Assembly: GCF_029227855.1 (NCBI RefSeq)
Contig: NZ_CP074356.1
Source: Escherichia coli
Lineage (GTDB): Bacteria; Pseudomonadota; Gammaproteobacteria; Enterobacterales; Enterobacteriaceae
Strand: one strand, 5' to 3'
DNA length: 64,000 bases
The translations under genes and the position numbers were made by a program. The notes under the pieces are model-generated. The model was not told where the DNA came from. It did not search any database and saw only the letters and a list, made by a program, of their open reading frames with translations. This document shows, piece after piece, positions 7,984-16,551 of the stretch; the first letter of the stretch is position 1; every line of letters begins with the position of its first letter.

Positions 7984-9267
7984 GTGAACACATTTTCAGT
8001 TTCCCGTCTGGCGCTGGCATTGGCTTTTGGCGTGACGCTGACCGCCTGTAGCTCAACACCGCCCGATCAACGTCCTTCTGATCAAACCGCGCCTGGTACC
8101 TCTTCTCGCCCGATTCTGTCGGCAAAAGAAGCGCAGAATTTCGATGCTCAACACTATTTTGCATCCCTGACACTAGGTGCGGCAGCGTGGAATCCTTCCC
8201 CGATTACCCTGCCTGCGCAACCTGACTTTGTTGTCGGCCCGGCGGGTACTCAAGGTGTAACGCATACCACGATTCAGGCGGCGGTAGATGCGGCAATTAT
8301 CAAGCGCACCAACAAGCGCCAGTATATTGCCGTGATGCCTGGTGAGTATCAGGGAACGGTGTATGTCCCTGCCGCTCCGGGTGGAATTACTCTGTACGGT
8401 ACAGGTGAAAAACCGATTGATGTGAAGATTGGGCTTTCCCTTGATGGTGGCATGAGCCCTGCCGACTGGCGTCACGACGTCAACCCGCGCGGCAAATATA
8501 TGCCAGGTAAACCGGCGTGGTATATGTACGATAGCTGCCAGAGCAAACGCAGCGACAGTATCGGCGTTCTCTGCTCTGCGGTCTTCTGGTCACAAAACAA
8601 TGGCCTGCAACTGCAAAACCTGACCATCGAAAACACGCTGGGCGATAGCGTAGATGCGGGTAACCATCCGGCGGTGGCACTGCGTACTGATGGTGACCAG
8701 GTACAGATTAACAACGTTAACATTCTCGGTCGTCAGAACACCTTCTTTGTCACCAACAGCGGTGTGCAGAACCGTCTGGAAACGAATCGTCAGCCGCGTA
8801 CTCTGGTGACCAACAGTTACATTGAAGGGGATGTGGATATCGTTTCTGGTCGCGGCGCAGTGGTGTTCGATAATACCGAATTCCGCGTGGTGAACTCACG
8901 TACTCAGCAAGAAGCGTATGTGTTTGCACCGGCTACGCTGTCTAACATCTATTACGGTTTCCTCGCCGTAAACAGCCGTTTCAATGCTTCCGGTGATGGC
9001 GTGGCGCAACTGGGTCGCTCGCTGGATGTTGATGCCAATACCAACGGTCAGGTGGTGATCCGTGATAGCGCCATCAACGAAGGTTTTAACACGGCTAAAC
9101 CGTGGGCCGATGCGGTGATTTCCAATCGTCCGTTTGCGGGTAATACTGGCAACGTTGATGATAACGACGAAGTACAGCGTAATCTGAATGACACTAACTA
9201 CAACCGCATGTGGGAATACAATAACCGCGGCGTGGGTAGCAAAGTGGTTGCAGAGGCGAAGAAGTAA
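7984..9267 (+). CDS. ybhC: Pectinesterase-like outer-membrane lipoprotein YbhC
   Basis: A 427 aa ORF with a GTG start. It has a signal peptide with lipobox LTAC|SS and a parallel beta-helix pectinesterase-like sequence. Confidence 0.92.
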   Translation: MNTFSVSRLALALAFGVTLTACSSTPPDQRPSDQTAPGTSSRPILSAKEAQNFDAQHYFASLTLGAAAWNPSPITLPAQPDFVVGPAGTQGVTHTTIQAAVDAAIIKRTNKRQYIAVMPGEYQGTVYVPAAPGGITLYGTGEKPIDVKIGLSLDGGMSPADWRHDVNPRGKYMPGKPAWYMYDSCQSKRSDSIGVLCSAVFWSQNNGLQLQNLTIENTLGDSVDAGNHPAVALRTDGDQVQINNVNILGRQNTFFVTNSGVQNRLETNRQPRTLVTNSYIEGDVDIVSGRGAVVFDNTEFRVVNSRTQQEAYVFAPATLSNIYYGFLAVNSRFNASGDGVAQLGRSLDVDANTNGQVVIRDSAINEGFNTAKPWADAVISNRPFAGNTGNVDDNDEVQRNLNDTNYNRMWEYNNRGVGSKVVAEAKK

Positions 9268-9310
9268 AAAAGAAAACCCGATAGTCTGAACCATCGGGTT
9301 AATGAAACAG

Positions 9311-9338
9311 GGCGCTATATTTCATAGCGCCTTTTTTT
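9311..9338 (+). terminator. Rho-independent terminator after ybhC
   Basis: ggcgctat-atttc-atagcgcc stem-loop followed by T7. The T-run overlaps the ybhJ stop codon on the other strand. Confidence 0.75.
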
Positions 9339-11598
9339 ACATCTGACGGTTTTTATTGAAATTAATCAAACTACCCGCCTTGATAATCTCGCGCTCTTCA
9401 GCAGTCAGACTTTCCATATAGAGCGTAATCTCTGTTACCGGCGCATCTTCATGGATCACATAACCTTTAAACGTCGTACCCGGATTATCCAGCGCCGCTT
9501 TAATGCCAGGGATGTAAATGTAATCCCCCACTTCAAACGTTGGTGCTTCCGCCATTTGCAGCGGTAACATCCCCCAGTTGATGACGTTAGAACGGTAGCG
9601 TTTAGTCGCGTATTCCTCGGCAATATTCGCCAGACCGCCAATCACACGCTGGCAGCTCGCCGCCTGCTCACGCGCAGAACCATCGCCTGGTTTCACCGCA
9701 TAGACCATGCTGCCAATTTCAGTTTGCAGCGGATCAATATGCTCCTGACCAGCAATCTGCTTAATGCGCGCAAACACCTCTGTCAGCTCGCTGACATTCC
9801 CCGCCAGACGCTGATTTTCCAGCTCGGCAGTCGCTTTACTTCTGCCAACATAACCTGGATCGCGGCGTGACAGGGTAAACTCCGCCAGACCAATCGGATT
9901 TGAACGATAAGAAGATGTTTCACCGGAAGGAATCAGTTCGTCGGTGGTGGTGACTTCGTCGAGGATCTTCGAGCACACTTTGAGGACGATATTGTCAGTC
10001 AGCGCACCCAATTCCGGCCAGTCTTTAATGTTCGGTCCGTAAATCAGCGGTTGCTGGGTCGCCCCTTTCACAAAGCCCTGATAAACACGGTTTTTATACG
10101 GCGTTACATCGAAGGCGTACTCCGGCACGTTGTCCCAGCAATCGAGTTCGCTGGCAGAAGTTAAATAGCCACCGTTTGCCGCAGTCGCAGCGATAGAACG
10201 AGCGTCCATCAACGCCACCGCTGACATCTGCCCATTAGCTGGCTTAGAGCCTTCGCGGTTCGGGAAGTTACGCGTAGTGTGGCGAATACTTAAACCGTTG
10301 TTGATTGGCGTATCGCCCGCGCCAAAGCATGGGCCGCAGAACGCGGTTCTGATGATTGCGCCTGCGCCAATCAAATCTGCTACCACACCTTTTTTGGCGA
10401 GATCCATAAACACCGGCTGTGATGACGGGTAAACCGCCAGCGAGAAGGTGTCATTGCCACAGGATTGACCGCGCAGTGCATTCGCCGCCGCGATGACGTT
10501 TTCGTAGTTACCGCCAGAACAGCCCGCGATAATCCCCTGCTGCACTTTCAGGCGACCATTTTCCACTTTATCCAGCAGCGAGAGTTTGGCTTTACCGTGC
10601 GCCACGCGTTCGGACTCAATTTCAATCTCACGCAGAATGTCGGTCAGGTTCTGGTTCAGTGTGTCGATTTCATACACGTTGCTCGGGTGGAACGGCAGCG
10701 CAATCATTGGTTTGATAGCGCTTAAATCAACGCTGATGCAGCCATCGTAGTACGCCATCGGTTGAGGGTTAAGCTGGCAGTAATCCTGGCCGCGACCGTG
10801 CAGCGCCAGCCAGTTATGGACTTCTTCATCGGTTTGCCAGACAGAACTTAAACAGGTCGTTTCAGTGGTCATAACGTCAACGCTGTTACGGAAATCGGTA
10901 GAGAGCGCAGCAACACCGGGACCTACGAATTCCATCACTTTGTTTTTGACGTAGCCGTTTTTGAACACCGCGCCGATAATCGCCAGCGCCACATCCTGCG
11001 GACCCACATACGGAGCAGGTTTTCCGGTCAGATGCACCGCAACCACGTCCGGATAGTCGATATCCCATGTGTCATTAAGCAGTTGTTTTACCAGCTCGCC
11101 GCCGCCCTCACCGACTGCCATTGTCCCTAATGCACCGTAACGGGTGTGGCTGTCTGACCCGAGGATCATTTTGCCGCCGCCTGCCATCATTTCACGCATA
11201 TATTGATGGATAACCGCAATATGCGGAGGCACAAAAATACCGCCATAACGCTGCGCTGCCGATAAGCCAAAAATATGGTCATCACCGTTAATGGTGCCGC
11301 CGACGGCGCAGAGTGAGTTATGGCAGTTGGTCAGCACATACGGCAGCGGGAAACGTTCCATACCCGACGCTTTAGCGGTCTGTACAATACCAACAAAGGT
11401 AATATCGTGAGAGGCTAATGAATCAAACTTAATTTTAAGTTTATCCATATTTCCGGACGTATTATGAGAAGAGAGAATAGACCAGGCAATAGTGCCTTTT
11501 TTTGCTTCTTCTTTTTTAATTTCGCCGGTGAAATGTTCTTCGGCAATTATTTCGTTATTACTGGCGAGAAACACGCCTTTTTCAGATAACTTGATCAT
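9337..11598 (-). CDS. ybhJ: Aconitase-family putative hydratase YbhJ
   Basis: [23 protein letters not shown]... gives 753 aa from the internal ATG. It carries the aconitase-type motifs GSDSHT and CGPCFG. Confidence 0.93.
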
Positions 11599-11652
11599 CA
11601 AATGCTCCAGATATCTGCGCACCGAGAAGTGCGCAGAAAGATAATAAATGGA

Positions 11653-11779
11653 TATACTCTAAATAATTCGAGTTGCAGGAAGGCGACAATCGAGTGAATC
11701 CCCAGGAGCTTACATAAGTAAGTGACTGGGGTGAGCGAACGCAGACGCAGCACATGCAACTTGAAGTATGACGAGTATA
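11653..11779. repeat. ERIC (IRU) repeat, full-length copy
   Basis: tatactctaaataattcgagttgcaggaaggc...gtgaatccccaggagcttacataagtaagtgactggggtgagcg...gcaacttgaagtatgacgagtata matches the ERIC consensus core. It lies between ybhJ and ybhI. Confidence 0.9.
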
Positions 11780-11780
11780 T

Positions 11781-13214
11781 TTACAGCATGTTCCAGCCGA
11801 TCAGCATATTCCACCACCACACGCCAAGGGTGATATGCACCAGGAAGGTTAATATCGTCAGTACCGCACCGACCAACCACCAGGATTTAATATCGTTATA
11901 ACCCACGCCAAAGATGACCGGACCTGCCGCGCCGCCATAGTGAGTAACCATGCCGCCATAGGAGTTGGAGAACAACAGTGCCAGCGCGGTTAACATTAAC
12001 GGTGCGCCGGAGACGTTCGCCAGCATGGCAAATACCGGTAACATGGCAACGATATAGGCACTACCGGAAGCGAAGAAATAACGCACGATAATGCTGAGGA
12101 AAATAATAACGAAGAAAGCAACGTTACCGTGACCATCAAATGCCAGGTTATTTTTAAAGACTTCAGCTAACCATTCGAAGAATTTAACTTTCGATAATAA
12201 GGAGCTTAAGCCGATAATACCGCCGTACCAGATTAAGGTATTCCAGCCGCCTTTATTTTTAACCACGTCTTCCCAGGTAACGATACCCAGCAGCAGCATA
12301 GTCGCCATAACAACGATTGCCACGGTGGATTCATCAACCCCCAGTGACTTACTGAAAATCCAGCCCAGCAGCGCCAGCACGAAGACACCGAGCAGCATTT
12401 TTTCGCGGATTTTCATCGGTCCCAGTTCGGCAAGGCCCGCTTTGGCGATGGTTTTGTTATCCACCTTCTTAATTTCTGGCGGATACATGGTGTAAATCAC
12501 CAGCGGGGTGACCAGCAGCATAATGATACCCGGCAATCCGGCTGCCAGCGCCCATCCACCCCAGCTAATTTGCAGGTGCAGAATGTCGTTGATCATTTTC
12601 AGCGCCAGAATGTTCCCCGCCATTGCGGTAAAGAACATATAGCTGGTGGTTTTGGTGACCATGTAAATGGACATCATCAGGTAATGTCCGACACGACGCG
12701 GACTTTTTTCCGGTTCTGACCCCAAAGCCACCGCCACGCTGTTGATGATCGGTAACACAATGCCGCCCGCACGCGCGGTGTTAGACGGTGTTGCCGGAGC
12801 CAGTACCAGATCGAGGAATACCGTAACGTAACCCAGACCCAGCGTGGTGTTACCGATTTTACCAATCAGCAGATAGGCAATACGTTTACCTAAGCCGGTG
12901 GTCACAAATGCGGCGCTTAAGGTAAACGCGGAGAACACCAGCCAGGTGGTACCTGAAGAGTAACCGCTTAATACGGCGGTGGTCTTAAACGCACCGTCGG
13001 ATAAGTTACCGACCACCACCATGGAGGCAGCAACGGCAATTAACAGTACGACAGGTTCCGGGAAAGGCTTGATAACCAGCCCCACAATGGCCGCCAGGTA
13101 AATACCAAAAAGCACCCACGCCAGTTCGCTTAATCCTGCCGGAGCTGGCATAAAGCCAATAATACATGGGATCGCTAATATCAGAATTAGCTTCCATAAC
13201 GATTTTTTATTCAT
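11781..13214 (-). CDS. ybhI: DASS-family anion:sodium/anion exchanger YbhI
   Basis: A 477 aa polytopic membrane protein (MNKKSLWKLILILAIPCIIGF...). Confidence 0.92.
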   Translation of the reverse strand: MNKKSLWKLILILAIPCIIGFMPAPAGLSELAWVLFGIYLAAIVGLVIKPFPEPVVLLIAVAASMVVVGNLSDGAFKTTAVLSGYSSGTTWLVFSAFTLSAAFVTTGLGKRIAYLLIGKIGNTTLGLGYVTVFLDLVLAPATPSNTARAGGIVLPIINSVAVALGSEPEKSPRRVGHYLMMSIYMVTKTTSYMFFTAMAGNILALKMINDILHLQISWGGWALAAGLPGIIMLLVTPLVIYTMYPPEIKKVDNKTIAKAGLAELGPMKIREKMLLGVFVLALLGWIFSKSLGVDESTVAIVVMATMLLLGIVTWEDVVKNKGGWNTLIWYGGIIGLSSLLSKVKFFEWLAEVFKNNLAFDGHGNVAFFVIIFLSIIVRYFFASGSAYIVAMLPVFAMLANVSGAPLMLTALALLFSNSYGGMVTHYGGAAGPVIFGVGYNDIKSWWLVGAVLTILTFLVHITLGVWWWNMLIGWNML

Positions 13215-13289
13215 TTAAAATCCTGTTCTTTCTGTATGACTCATACAGAAGTCCTTTATTGATTGTCCTTATCCTGACAACGAATTTTT

Positions 13290-14342
13290 TCAGGGAAGAA
13301 AAACTTCACCGGAAAATATTTTTCTGGTTGTCCGAATAACAGATGCGCGTAACGTCGTGGCATCCTGACCTTCATTACTTAAATGAACGTCGAGCGCACC
13401 ACTGGGGTGTTCAATATTGATATTGCCGTATCCTATAGAAGAGACGATTTGTCGGGTGACGGTGCCTTCCAATGCACAACTACTGGAAATGGCAATAGCA
13501 CCGGTTATCGCCAGCGCGCGATGGCAAGAATGCGGCATAAAATAACGCACATTAATTGCTCCGCCTTTCTGCGCTGGAGAAATAAGCACAGGTTTAGGGA
13601 TAACCATATTACTGACATCGCCTAAGCCCATTGCTTTACCCGCTTGTAGACGGATAGATTCAATGCGAGCTAATAATGCTTTGTCGGCATCCAGTTCCGT
13701 CGGTAATTCATAGCCTGTTTTTCCCAGATATTCAGCAGGAATAATGACAACTGGCATCGCCATATCGATACAGGTCACCGGGACATCGTCAAAATAATCA
13801 ATCTGATTATCCGTCGGGAAGACTTTTCCGGTTTTGGTTCCGGCGGCATTCAGGAAAGTGAGCGCAACCGGTGCGGCAGTACCCGGTACGCCGTCAATTC
13901 TGGCGCTACCCTCGTACTCGACAACACCATTTGGCGTTTGCACATCAGCTTCGATGAACGTACCCGTATTGACGTTGCGGATACGTACGCGGGTAACTGG
14001 CGAAGTCGCTGCAATCAAACCATTTTCAATGGCGAATGCCCCAACGCCAGACAGCATATTGCCGCAGTTAGGCGTGGTATCGACACGTTGCTCATGGACG
14101 ATAACTTGAGCAAACAGATAATCGACATCAGCACGCGGATCGCTGGAACGGCTAATAATGGCGACTTTACTGGTCAGCGGATTACCGCCGCCAATACCGT
14201 CAATTTCCAGATCGTTACCGGAACCCATAATTGCCATCAATATTTTATCGCGCTGCGTTTGATCTTCGGGTAGATGTTCCGCTAACAGGAACGCGCCCCT
14301 CGAGGTTCCACCTCGCATCATCACGCAGGGTATTTTTTTCAT
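13290..14342 (-). CDS. ybhH: PrpF-family isomerase YbhH
   Basis: A 350 aa ORF. The MKKIPCVMMRGGTSRGAFL N-terminus is typical of the PrpF / 4-oxalomesaconate tautomerase family. Confidence 0.92.
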   Translation of the reverse strand: MKKIPCVMMRGGTSRGAFLLAEHLPEDQTQRDKILMAIMGSGNDLEIDGIGGGNPLTSKVAIISRSSDPRADVDYLFAQVIVHEQRVDTTPNCGNMLSGVGAFAIENGLIAATSPVTRVRIRNVNTGTFIEADVQTPNGVVEYEGSARIDGVPGTAAPVALTFLNAAGTKTGKVFPTDNQIDYFDDVPVTCIDMAMPVVIIPAEYLGKTGYELPTELDADKALLARIESIRLQAGKAMGLGDVSNMVIPKPVLISPAQKGGAINVRYFMPHSCHRALAITGAIAISSSCALEGTVTRQIVSSIGYGNINIEHPSGALDVHLSNEGQDATTLRASVIRTTRKIFSGEVFLP

Positions 14343-14525
14343 AATAATGCCCTCAATTTAAAAACATAACTTATTGCGATATGGTTACATTAAGGGCAAA
14401 GCATCTCTAATGACTTTAGCTCAACGATTAATAACATTTTTTCATTAATTTAAGTTAGCTAAATGCAGTTAGAATTTTTAACGGCCAGTCACCCAAAATC
14501 GACGCTTCCATTTTCCGGAGTAATA

Positions 14526-15479
14526 ATGAAGCATGAATTATCAAGTATGAAGGCATTTGTCATACTGGCAGAGTCCAGTTCATTTAACAATGCCGCTAAA
14601 TTACTCAATATTACGCAACCTGCATTAACGCGAAGAATAAAAAAGATGGAGGAAGATTTACATATCCAACTATTTGAGCGTACAACTCGCAAGGTTACGT
14701 TAACAAAAGCAGGAAAAAGATTGCTCCCGGAGGCGCGGGAATTAATAAAGAAATTCGATGAAACGCTTTTTAATATTCGTGATATGAATGCTTATCATCG
14801 TGGTATGGTGACATTAGCGTGTATTCCGACCGCAGTATTTTATTTTTTACCGCTGGCAATCGGTAAATTTAATGAGCTTTATCCCAATATTAAAGTGCGG
14901 ATTCTGGAACAAGGTACGAATAATTGCATGGAATCGGTGCTGTGTAACGAATCAGACTTTGGCATAAACATGAACAACGTCACAAATTCATCCATCGATT
15001 TTACCCCACTGGTCAACGAGCCGTTCGTGCTGGCCTGTCGGCGTGACCATCCATTGGCCAAAAAGCAGCTTGTAGAATGGCAGGAGTTAGTGGGTTACAA
15101 AATGATTGGCGTACGCTCCTCCAGCGGCAACCGACTGTTGATAGAACAACAGCTAGCCGACAAGCCCTGGAAGCTGGACTGGTTTTACGAAGTGCGTCAT
15201 CTTTCGACGTCATTAGGACTGGTGGAGGCAGGACTGGGGATTTCGGCGCTTCCTGGTCTGGCAATGCCCCATGCGCCCTATTCTTCGATTATTGGTATCC
15301 CACTGGTGGAACCGGTTATACGTCGGACATTGGGGATTATTCGCCGCAAAGATGCCGTGCTTTCTCCGGCAGCTGAACGCTTTTTTGCCTTGCTGATTAA
15401 TTTGTGGACTGACGATAAAGACAATTTGTGGACCAATATCGTCGAACGCCAGAGACATGCGTTACAGGAGATAGGTTAA
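14526..15479 (+). CDS. ybhD: LysR-type transcriptional regulator YbhD
   Basis: MKHELSSMKAFVILAESSSFNNAAKLLNITQPALTRRIKKMEEDL (HTH) gives 317 aa from ATG 14526. It is divergent from ybhH. Confidence 0.92.
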   Translation: MKHELSSMKAFVILAESSSFNNAAKLLNITQPALTRRIKKMEEDLHIQLFERTTRKVTLTKAGKRLLPEARELIKKFDETLFNIRDMNAYHRGMVTLACIPTAVFYFLPLAIGKFNELYPNIKVRILEQGTNNCMESVLCNESDFGINMNNVTNSSIDFTPLVNEPFVLACRRDHPLAKKQLVEWQELVGYKMIGVRSSSGNRLLIEQQLADKPWKLDWFYEVRHLSTSLGLVEAGLGISALPGLAMPHAPYSSIIGIPLVEPVIRRTLGIIRRKDAVLSPAAERFFALLINLWTDDKDNLWTNIVERQRHALQEIG

Positions 15480-15483
15480 TACA

Positions 15484-15508
15484 CCGGCGCAGAAGAGACT
15501 GCGCCGGG
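15484..15508. terminator. Hairpin between convergent ybhD and pgl
   Basis: Stem-loop ccggcgcag-aagagac-tgcgccgg. Confidence 0.5.
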
Positions 15509-15519
15509 TAAATCAGCGG

Positions 15520-16551
<1,032 letters not shown>

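Follow-up and report, generated by a model that had tools for sequence, protein, structure and literature searches.

The genes ybhD, ybhH, ybhI and ybhJ of Escherichia coli were analysed within a stretch of 64 000 nucleotides (contig NZ_CP074356.1 of assembly GCF_029227855.1; the whole stretch is referred to as the window), in which they lie at positions 9337–15479. The reading preferred here, with confidence slightly above even, is that ybhD and the divergent gene set ybhH-ybhI-ybhJ constitute an inducible system for the uptake and assimilation of trans-aconitate or of an aconitate isomer very close to it. Plants contain trans-aconitate in abundance, and this tricarboxylate inhibits ordinary aconitase. 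YbhD, the repressor function of which is published, would hold the operon off until the inducer, presumably trans-aconitate itself, is met. YbhI, a CitT-like exchanger of the DASS family, would then import the tricarboxylate, probably against succinate or malate; YbhH would turn trans- into cis-aconitate by a 1,3-allylic proton shift through Lys59 and Cys93; and YbhJ, as a [4Fe-4S] aconitase, would hydrate cis-aconitate to citrate and/or isocitrate, which could feed the tricarboxylic acid cycle or, anaerobically, citrate lyase. The substrates, the inducer and the exchange mechanism are all inferred. The following features were located in the window:

9275–9300, minus strand: terminator-like hairpin and T-run directly 3′ of the ybhJ stop codon (terminator scan)
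9337–11598, minus strand: ybhJ, 753-residue Fe-S hydro-lyase of the aconitase family (Pfam, NCBIfam, K-12 annotation)
11615–11636, minus strand: hairpin upstream of the ybhJ ribosome-binding site (direct sequence reading)
11652–11780, no strand assigned: enterobacterial repetitive intergenic consensus (ERIC) element, or intergenic repeat unit (IRU), in the ybhI-ybhJ spacer (primer match, inverted arms, fold)
11781–13214, minus strand: ybhI, 477-residue DASS carrier (PF00939, TIGR00785)
13290–14342, minus strand: ybhH, 350-residue isomerase of the PrpF family (PF04303, NCBIfam OMA_tautomer)
14343–14525, no strand assigned: divergent ybhH/ybhD control region (conserved LysR-type box)
14526–15479, plus strand: ybhD, 317-residue LysR-type regulator (HTH_1 and LysR_substrate, K-12 annotation)

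On the minus strand the genes run in the order ybhH, ybhI, ybhJ, and ybhD is divergent from ybhH. The description given in the first-pass annotation (three co-directional genes of the aconitase, DASS and PrpF families with a divergent LysR gene) was confirmed in full with Pfam, and its span of 9337–15479 holds for the outer limits; as gene limits its ends were those of open reading frames (ORFs) and had to be replaced. The start of ybhJ was placed at 11598 on the basis of the K-12 annotation and the fit of the NCBIfam model, not at the GTG at 11622, and that of ybhD at 14526 according to the K-12 annotation, not at 14463. The ybhD ORF runs 21 codons upstream of the annotated start (14463–14525). 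The ATG at 14526 is served by a GGAG ribosome-binding site and closely followed by the HTH domain; the longer ORF is probably unused. No published substrate for ybhHIJ was found in a literature search, in agreement with the earlier statement that none had been assigned, and a search of the literature on random barcode transposon-site sequencing (RB-TnSeq) gave nothing relevant to the ybh genes. The two more general earlier claims, namely a self-contained tricarboxylate-processing unit with its own carrier and LysR regulator, and a probably aconitate-like substrate, are supported by the evidence below.

The substrate proposal is carried by the surroundings of YbhH orthologues in other genomes. 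Outside the enterobacteria with ybhHIJ, orthologues of 61–63% identity occur in Pseudomonas, Azotobacter, Dickeya and Enterobacter, and seven such loci were fetched. A divergent LysR gene encoding a YbhD orthologue (52–60% identical, full length) is present in all seven. The genes found beside the isomerase gene are as follows:

Pseudomonas, first arrangement: followed by an SDF carrier, a CitMHS carrier and an OprD porin
Pseudomonas, second arrangement: followed by OprD, TctC, TctB, TctA and a 2-hydroxyacid dehydrogenase
Azotobacter: followed by CitMHS, TerC and OprD, and directly preceded by tcuR-tcuA-tcuB
Dickeya: followed by an MFS carrier, a protein of the FAA-hydrolase family and citC-D-E-F
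Enterobacter: followed by an MFS carrier, a protein of the FAA-hydrolase family and a complete citC-D-E-F-X-G

The product of tcuAB action on tricarballylate is cis-aconitate (the TcuA reaction). The conserved core is therefore ybhD with divergent ybhH, not ybhH with ybhJ: besides this pair the sole constant is a carboxylate carrier, in several cases of tricarboxylate type (TctCBA, CitMHS), and the evolutionary unit is a regulator plus isomerase with interchangeable carboxylate carriers. YbhH orthologues mostly lack a partner of the aconitase family, the YbhH-YbhJ pairing being confined to Enterobacterales. Several of these genomes encode no enzyme beside the isomerase, the product of which must therefore already be a central metabolite; given the Tct and CitMHS carriers, tcuAB and citrate lyase nearby, cis-aconitate is the most plausible product and trans-aconitate the most plausible substrate. 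The same loci bear on the order of the reactions. Dehydration followed by isomerisation had been proposed in the first pass, and this order is probably reversed: orthologues without any aconitase stand with the regulator and tricarboxylate carriers only, or with citrate lyase, so that the isomerase would act first, on the imported compound.

Where all four genes are present, they travel together. In Klebsiella aerogenes a block consisting of a LysR gene and divergent PrpF, DASS, CitMHS and aconitase genes lies at a different chromosomal site, near the genes of citrate fermentation citAB, oadGAB, citS and citC, and the Edwardsiella block is found at yet another; across Klebsiella, Edwardsiella and E. 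coli, the LysR, PrpF, DASS and aconitase genes change their chromosomal site as one block. In two Edwardsiella tarda genomes (loci L003 and L004, 8483–9912) ybhI is matched in two overlapping pieces with no gene called; it is apparently a frameshifted pseudogene there, and ybhD, ybhH and ybhJ are intact.

YbhH itself was matched by PF04303 (PrpF) at 1e-166, and its crystal structure is deposited as "putative isomerase YbhH" (PDB 6OTV). Its nearest characterised relatives are, in this order, LigU (45% identity, E=8e-106), the 3-methylitaconate isomerase Mii (3e-67) and PrpF. The earlier identification as PrpF did not stand: the score against the PrpF equivalog TIGR02334 is 186.7 bits (cut-off 440.55), YbhH is closest to LigU/GalD, and PrpF is only third among its relatives in the PDB. 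With LigU/GalD (PDB 6P3H/J/K) YbhH shares the fold and the catalytic Lys/Cys pair; Lys59 and Cys93 align with LigU Lys66 and Cys100, the residues mutated in 6P3H (K66M) and 6P3K (C100S). The LigU/GalD reaction is likewise a 1,3-allylic shift on a propene-tricarboxylate skeleton. Oxalomesaconate is aconitate with one carboxyl swapped for an oxalyl group, and the isomerisation of aconitate is the same 1,3-allylic shift as the LigU reaction. Lys59 and Cys93 also correspond to Lys73 and Cys107 of PrpF, both of which are required for function in that enzyme, and PrpF has aconitate isomerase activity (PMC5690661). Two papers that had seemed relevant were set aside: the "YbhH" of a Pseudomonas chlororaphis study is a 34% identical paralogue, and the protein of a Pseudomonas itaconate-cluster study belongs to MmgE/PrpD, not to PrpF.

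The likeness to LigU gives rise to the alternative that has survived best, which is nevertheless considered unlikely and is the one suggested by the RefSeq name "4-oxalomesaconate tautomerase": the substrate isomerised by YbhH would be oxalomesaconate, which other gut bacteria release on cleaving the ring of gallate or protocatechuate, and hydration of the product by YbhJ would yield 4-carboxy-4-hydroxy-2-oxoadipate, an acid resembling citrate. The carriers would suit such a route, oxalomesaconate itself being a tricarboxylate, and both catalytic residues are retained at 45% identity to LigU. A gene resembling RraA lies beside a 47% identical YbhJ paralogue in one Lachnospiraceae locus, and another lies 7 kb from the Dickeya gene. 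The neighbourhoods speak otherwise. No ring-cleavage dioxygenase, LigJ/GalB hydratase or adjacent LigK/GalC aldolase was found in the window region, in the seven YbhH-orthologue loci or in the Klebsiella and Edwardsiella loci. Genes of protocatechuate 4,5-cleavage and of gallate breakdown are absent from the loci examined, unlike the setting of LigU/GalD, and the neighbours are instead citrate lyase, tcuAB and Tct carriers, or, for YbhJ orthologues, citrate synthase and isocitrate dehydrogenase. With the isomerase as the sole enzyme in Pseudomonas and Azotobacter, the route would also end there in a dead-end product. The clade with these informative contexts is, moreover, 61–63% identical to YbhH, well above the 45% of LigU.

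YbhJ was matched by Aconitase (PF00330, 5e-88) and Aconitase_C, and most strongly by its own NCBIfam model, PRK11413 "hydratase" (1540 bits, residues 9–761 of the longer ORF). The next-best models belong to the PRK07229/TIGR01342 group of putative aconitate hydratases, and the nearest solved structure is mitochondrial aconitase, not AcnA/IRP or AcnB. The order of the four domains with a C-terminal swivel domain and the catalytic residues are shared with mitochondrial aconitase and the PRK07229/TIGR01342 group; YbhJ differs in being only about 30% identical, with about 100 extra residues, and its clade carries a signature of its own (NCHN for DH at Asp100-His101, GC(S/A)GG for SCTN and GSARE for GSSRE). 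The GSDSHT and CGPCFG motifs noticed in the first pass are present at residues 147–152 (window 11143–11160) and 421–426 (window 10321–10338), respectively, and the third cluster cysteine lies within AGCSGG (residues 358–363).

The active site was compared by profile alignment with pig mitochondrial aconitase (pig residues in three-letter code, YbhJ residues in one-letter code). The cluster cysteines Cys358/421/424 are kept as C360/C421/C424. Also retained are His101 (H93), His147 (H131), Asp165/Ser166/His167 (D149/S150/H151), Glu262 (E246), Asp568 (D553) and the catalytic Ser642 (S641), together with the four substrate arginines Arg447 (R443), Arg452 (R448), Arg580 (R565) and Arg644 (R643). 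Arg580 binds the third carboxylate and separates aconitases from isomerases of the isopropylmalate type. The motifs DSHT, GCxGG, CGPCFG, RNFxxREG and GDGSxRE are intact in all 82 full-length YbhJ family members from the fetched loci. Judged by its residues, YbhJ looks like a working tricarboxylate aconitase. It has been termed a "catalytically inactive paralog" with reference to a knock-out result of Blank 2002 (PMC4054840); with the motifs kept in 82 of 82 members, this label is unsupported by sequence. In three distant family members (P0148, P0154 and P0214; 33–38% identical) the cluster cysteines and the DSH motif are lost, and these may be pseudo-enzymes.

Further evidence for YbhJ was obtained from its own orthologues. 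At the level of 50% clusters the family is small; a scan with one genome per species gave more than 600 matches. The best matches outside E. coli are full length and 65–73% identical and occur in gut anaerobes: Lachnospiraceae (Lacrimispora, Hungatella, Lachnoclostridium), Collinsella, Megasphaera, Solobacterium and Faecalibacterium. Such identity across phyla suggests horizontal exchange of ybhJ among gut bacteria. YbhH and YbhI are absent beside YbhJ in these anaerobes. For the neighbourhood analysis ORFs were called and clustered, and the recurrent neighbours were annotated. Half of the loci outside Collinsella (22 of 44) have, within 5 kb, at least one gene for citrate synthase, isocitrate dehydrogenase, a citrate lyase subunit or a MatC/CitMHS carrier, in two patterns: citrate synthase (PF00285) with isocitrate dehydrogenase (PF00180), for example in L015, L025 (10001–12295), L029, L036 and L044; and citrate lyase citD/E/F/G with MatC/CitMHS, for example in L017, L038, L039 and L046 and in part in L007, L011 and L034. 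A gene of the aconitase family that lies between citrate synthase and isocitrate dehydrogenase genes, or beside citrate lyase, is most simply an aconitase, and where it is clustered with the former two it may be the working aconitase of the organism. In three loci a PrpF-family gene (product 34–35% identical to YbhH) and CitMHS carriers are also nearby. Singleton neighbour ORFs in the loci without citrate genes looked unrelated or spurious.

Two side observations were made in these neighbourhoods. A seven-bladed lactonase (PF10282) recurs together with MatC/CitMHS beside YbhJ orthologues in L017, L034, L039 and L048 (7407–8456), with citrate lyase in three of the four, which hints at the catabolism of a lactone-forming tricarboxylate. 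The E. coli gene pgl, which abuts ybhD (window 15520–16515), belongs to the same Pfam family; this is probably a coincidence, and pgl was rejected as a member of the module, its product being only 23% identical to the lactonases beside the Firmicute YbhJ homologues and the gene being unlinked in Klebsiella and Edwardsiella. The other neighbour of the module in the window is ybhC. In a Lachnospiraceae metagenome-assembled genome (L019, 5684–9586) a second YbhJ paralogue (47%) lies between an RraA-like gene (family of HMG/CHA aldolase or oxaloacetate decarboxylase) and a gene resembling ketopantoate reductase; it adjoins the YbhJ orthologue, a PrpF-like gene, a CitMHS carrier and a 2HCT carrier, the whole forming an island of tricarboxylate genes.

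YbhD contains the HTH_1 and LysR_substrate domains (Pfam). [quoted passage not shown] Control by Nac was noted there, and a function "L-malate utilisation related" was suggested, with no substrate given (PMC9068703). In the window a LysR-type box ATTAAT-N11-ATTAAT was found at 14427–14449, with a CATTAG motif about 12 nucleotides from it towards ybhH. The intergenic regions between ybhD and ybhH in Edwardsiella, Dickeya and Enterobacter retain both box and CATTAG, and those in Pseudomonas and Azotobacter retain them in part. The published YbhD binding presumably falls on this box.

YbhI was assigned to PF00939 (Na_sulph_symp, DASS; 7e-195) and TIGR00785. Over its full length (477 residues) it is 33% identical to the citrate:succinate antiporter CitT of E. 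coli (E=5e-85), and this full-length similarity places it in the CitT/TtdT/DiT exchanger subfamily of DASS (2.A.47). CitT and YbhI thus share a subfamily, and both are tricarboxylate-type carriers linked to genes of citrate-processing enzymes; YbhI differs in being about equally similar to plant 2-oxoglutarate/malate translocators, its closest solved structures being those of the plastid proteins DiT1 and DiT2 (E=2e-83 and 4e-78), and in that its substrate and counter-substrate are putative. In K-12 it is annotated as a "putative tricarboxylate transporter". By homology YbhI likely exchanges its substrate against a C4-dicarboxylate, which would also account for the malate-dependent phenotype of the ybhD deletion.

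That phenotype and the likeness of YbhI to 2-oxoglutarate/malate translocators are in turn among the grounds for a C4/C5-dicarboxylate route, which was rated slightly below the oxalomesaconate route. It is modelled on Mii and DmdAB of nicotinate fermentation and includes the idea of L-malate utilisation: after import of itaconate, citraconate, mesaconate or malate, YbhH would move the double bond, and hydration by YbhJ would give a (methyl)malate. 3-Methylitaconate isomerase, the second-best solved relative of YbhH (3e-67), is established to work with a hydratase of the aconitase family, and one source labels the Edwardsiella YbhJ "2,3-dimethylmalate dehydratase large subunit". Against this, YbhJ keeps the counterpart of Arg580, the third-carboxylate binder of true aconitases; TctCBA and CitMHS are among the carriers found with YbhH orthologues; the neighbourhoods hold genes of citrate lyase, tcuAB, citrate synthase and isocitrate dehydrogenase; and the malate effect can be explained by malate as the counter-substrate of the exchanger.

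A pair of the AcnD/PrpF type, as proposed in the first pass, fared worse again. YbhJ would here dehydrate an imported hydroxy-tricarboxylate (2-methylcitrate, homocitrate), and YbhH would correct the geometry or the position of the double bond. At the level of superfamilies the analogy is sound: the 2-methylcitrate cycle of Shewanella and Vibrio pairs the same two, Lys73 and Cys107 of PrpF have counterparts in YbhH, PrpF isomerises aconitate (PMC5690661), and PrpF-like genes are found near YbhJ orthologues in the three Firmicute loci. Neither protein is an orthologue of its counterpart. The AcnD equivalog TIGR02333 gave 66.4 bits with YbhJ (cut-off 1419.85), and YbhH failed the PrpF model (187 against 440 bits); AcnD is AcnA-like and about 860 residues long, whereas YbhJ resembles mitochondrial aconitase and has 753. 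No prp genes were found in any related locus examined, and ybhHIJ lies outside a prp operon (no prpB or prpC) and has a carrier of its own; the order of its reactions is probably the opposite one. YbhH orthologues are mostly without a partner of the aconitase family, which makes the isomerase independent of a dehydratase product, and YbhJ orthologues are mostly without YbhH. Least probable of all is a non-metabolic YbhJ, an inactive or regulatory aconitase paralogue (e.g., a redox or iron sensor) linked to ybhHI without pathway meaning: the label of PMC4054840, the H2O2 sensitivity and low NADPH reported for a ybhJ deletion, the Asp100→Cys exchange and the loss of cysteines and DSH in the three distant members would agree with it, but the catalytic and cluster motifs stand in 82 of 82 family members, the four-gene block relocates as a unit, and low NADPH equally fits a lost supply of isocitrate.

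For the trans-aconitate reading the closest known parallel is the Tar system of Bacillus velezensis (2024), which comprises an activator of the LysR type (TarR), an aconitate isomerase of the PrpF family (TarA) and an importer of the MFS type (TarB; PMC11495376). In both cases a LysR regulator stands beside genes for an isomerase of the PrpF superfamily and a carboxylate importer, and by analogy import would be followed by one isomerisation into cis-aconitate. TarA homologues of 37–40% identity were tabulated for Escherichia fergusonii, Klebsiella and Citrobacter (PMC11495376, Table S6), and a homologue 39–40.6% identical to TarA from trans-aconitate-assimilating Pseudomonas was as active as TarA, a homologue of about 36% being weak (Table S4). 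Isolates of Enterobacter and Citrobacter that assimilate trans-aconitate were reported in 2026 (PMC13188880). Also counted in favour of this reading is an 18-fold increase of ybhJ expression in co-culture with the green alga Chlamydomonas (PMC10972114). The differences are that YbhD is a repressor and TarR an activator; that YbhI is a DASS protein (PF00939) and not, like TarB, an MFS importer; that YbhH belongs to a LigU/GalD-like clade about 39% identical to TarA, its aconitate isomerase activity being putative; and that the E. coli module adds the dedicated aconitase-family protein YbhJ. Compared with Tar systems the module is new in regulator logic, carrier family, isomerase clade and the added aconitase lineage.

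The following points weigh against the trans-aconitate reading. YbhH scores above the cut-off of the NCBIfam model for oxalomesaconate tautomerases, OMA_tautomer (NF033377; 515 against 440 bits), and its identity to LigU (45%) exceeds that to TarA (about 39%, estimated by proxy). A Providencia homologue of the PrpF family 38.5% identical to TarA, which may or may not be a YbhH orthologue, was nearly inactive (PMC11495376, Table S4). The only reported phenotype of a ybhD deletion is L-malate-dependent growth and does not concern a tricarboxylate (PMC9068703). YbhJ departs from aconitase at Asp100 (Cys), Gln72 (His), Asn170 (Tyr), Asn258 (Val) and Ser643 (Ala). In the knock-out work behind the "inactive" label, inactivation of ybhJ reportedly left the residual aconitase activity of acnAB mutants unchanged. 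This outcome is compatible with repression by YbhD and also with a YbhJ that does not act on citrate; with the repression now known, it says little on the catalytic capacity of YbhJ. E. coli already has AcnA and AcnB, and a third aconitase would have to serve, as we infer, for anaerobic expression or for tolerance of trans-aconitate. Informative neighbours are missing from the 35 Collinsella loci and from about half of the other YbhJ-orthologue loci. Co-transcription across the ERIC element is presumed, and the steps in E. coli are assigned by deduction.

A wider claim, which we put just short of an even chance, combines several elements. E. coli and its enterobacterial relatives would contain a cryptic, YbhD-repressed trans-aconitate pathway; YbhJ would be a true third aconitase, of a hitherto uncharacterised lineage (NCHN/GC(S/A)GG/GSARE) exchanged horizontally with gut Firmicutes and Actinobacteria, in many of which it may serve as the functional aconitase for making or fermenting citrate; and the RefSeq names "4-oxalomesaconate tautomerase" and "hydratase", given to thousands of genomes, would be wrong or empty. 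All four genes are among the remaining core genes of E. coli without known function, and 6OTV is an orphan structure; a concrete substrate proposal makes all four testable by simple assays. If correct, the proposal would give E. coli a third aconitase and explain how a gut commensal handles a common dietary aconitase inhibitor alongside the known Tam methyltransferase. Many gut Firmicutes carry "hydratase" genes next to those of citrate synthase and isocitrate dehydrogenase or of citrate lyase; these would likewise gain a function, and a tautomerase annotation that has been propagated widely would be corrected. The system could also matter for trans-aconitate production strains built in E. coli. 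The biochemistry involved is conventional. A preprint on guanosine tetraphosphate (ppGpp) was set aside, since ybhJ is named there only for a single-nucleotide polymorphism in a strain genotype.

The spacer between ybhI and ybhJ (182 nucleotides) is mostly occupied by the 129-nucleotide ERIC element at 11652–11780, which had been noted in the first pass as lying inside the presumed operon and was found at that place. The exact sequence of primer ERIC1R occurs at 11694–11715 (number expected by chance, 0.00) next to the reverse complement of ERIC2, and inverted arms of 26 nucleotides were located at 11652–11677 and 11755–11780. The RNA folds into a long hairpin (−41.8 kcal mol−1, z=−5.5). As an intergenic imperfect palindrome with an ERIC core, the element agrees with the ERIC/IRU definition (approximately 127 bp). 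It is fixed here, occupying the spacer in 5330 of the 5426 E. coli genomes, with a median of 5 megablast places for ERIC copies per genome; in Klebsiella aerogenes the CitMHS carrier gene occupies the corresponding position. The element would be a passenger in the spacer and may influence the production or the survival of ybhJ message. Between it and the ybhJ ribosome-binding site, a perfect 8-bp hairpin without a T-run (CTGCGCAC-ttctcg-GTGCGCAG) was read at 11615–11636; it includes the GTG at 11622 that opens the longer ybhJ ORF, and it might affect ybhJ translation or mRNA stability.

The hairpin at 9275–9300 has an 11-pair stem (5 G-C pairs) followed by TTCTTTTTTA on the minus strand and is likely the 3′ end of the ybhHIJ transcript. 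No comparable terminator was found by the terminator scan between ybhH and ybhI or between ybhI and ybhJ on the minus strand. The counts of the promoter and terminator scans were not above those of shuffled sequence, and the terminator after ybhJ was the only useful site. The Rfam scan of 9000–16000 gave sub-threshold matches only (V_AS5, which is the ERIC element, and Ysr283) and no riboswitch or leader RNA. The Ysr283 match, to a Yersinia small RNA, lies antisense to ybhI (12498–12749, plus strand; 39 bits, gathering score 58, E=3e-8) and most likely reflects the conservation of ybhI coding sequence, not an RNA gene.

Of 5426 complete E. coli genomes, 5315 carry at least 80% of the stretch 9300–15500, with ybhJ, ybhI, ybhH and ybhD annotated (RefSeq-type labels: hydratase, anion permease, 4-oxalomesaconate tautomerase and LysR regulator, respectively). 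The stretch is 100% identical to the E. coli chromosome NZ_AP045174 (strain JNEC-KY178). Identities of at least 99% were found in only 40 of 5445 matching E. coli records, nearly all others being at 95–99%, which indicates a comparatively divergent lineage of E. coli as the source of the window. In one genome (NZ_CP044403) the insertion sequence IS1 is inserted within ybhI.

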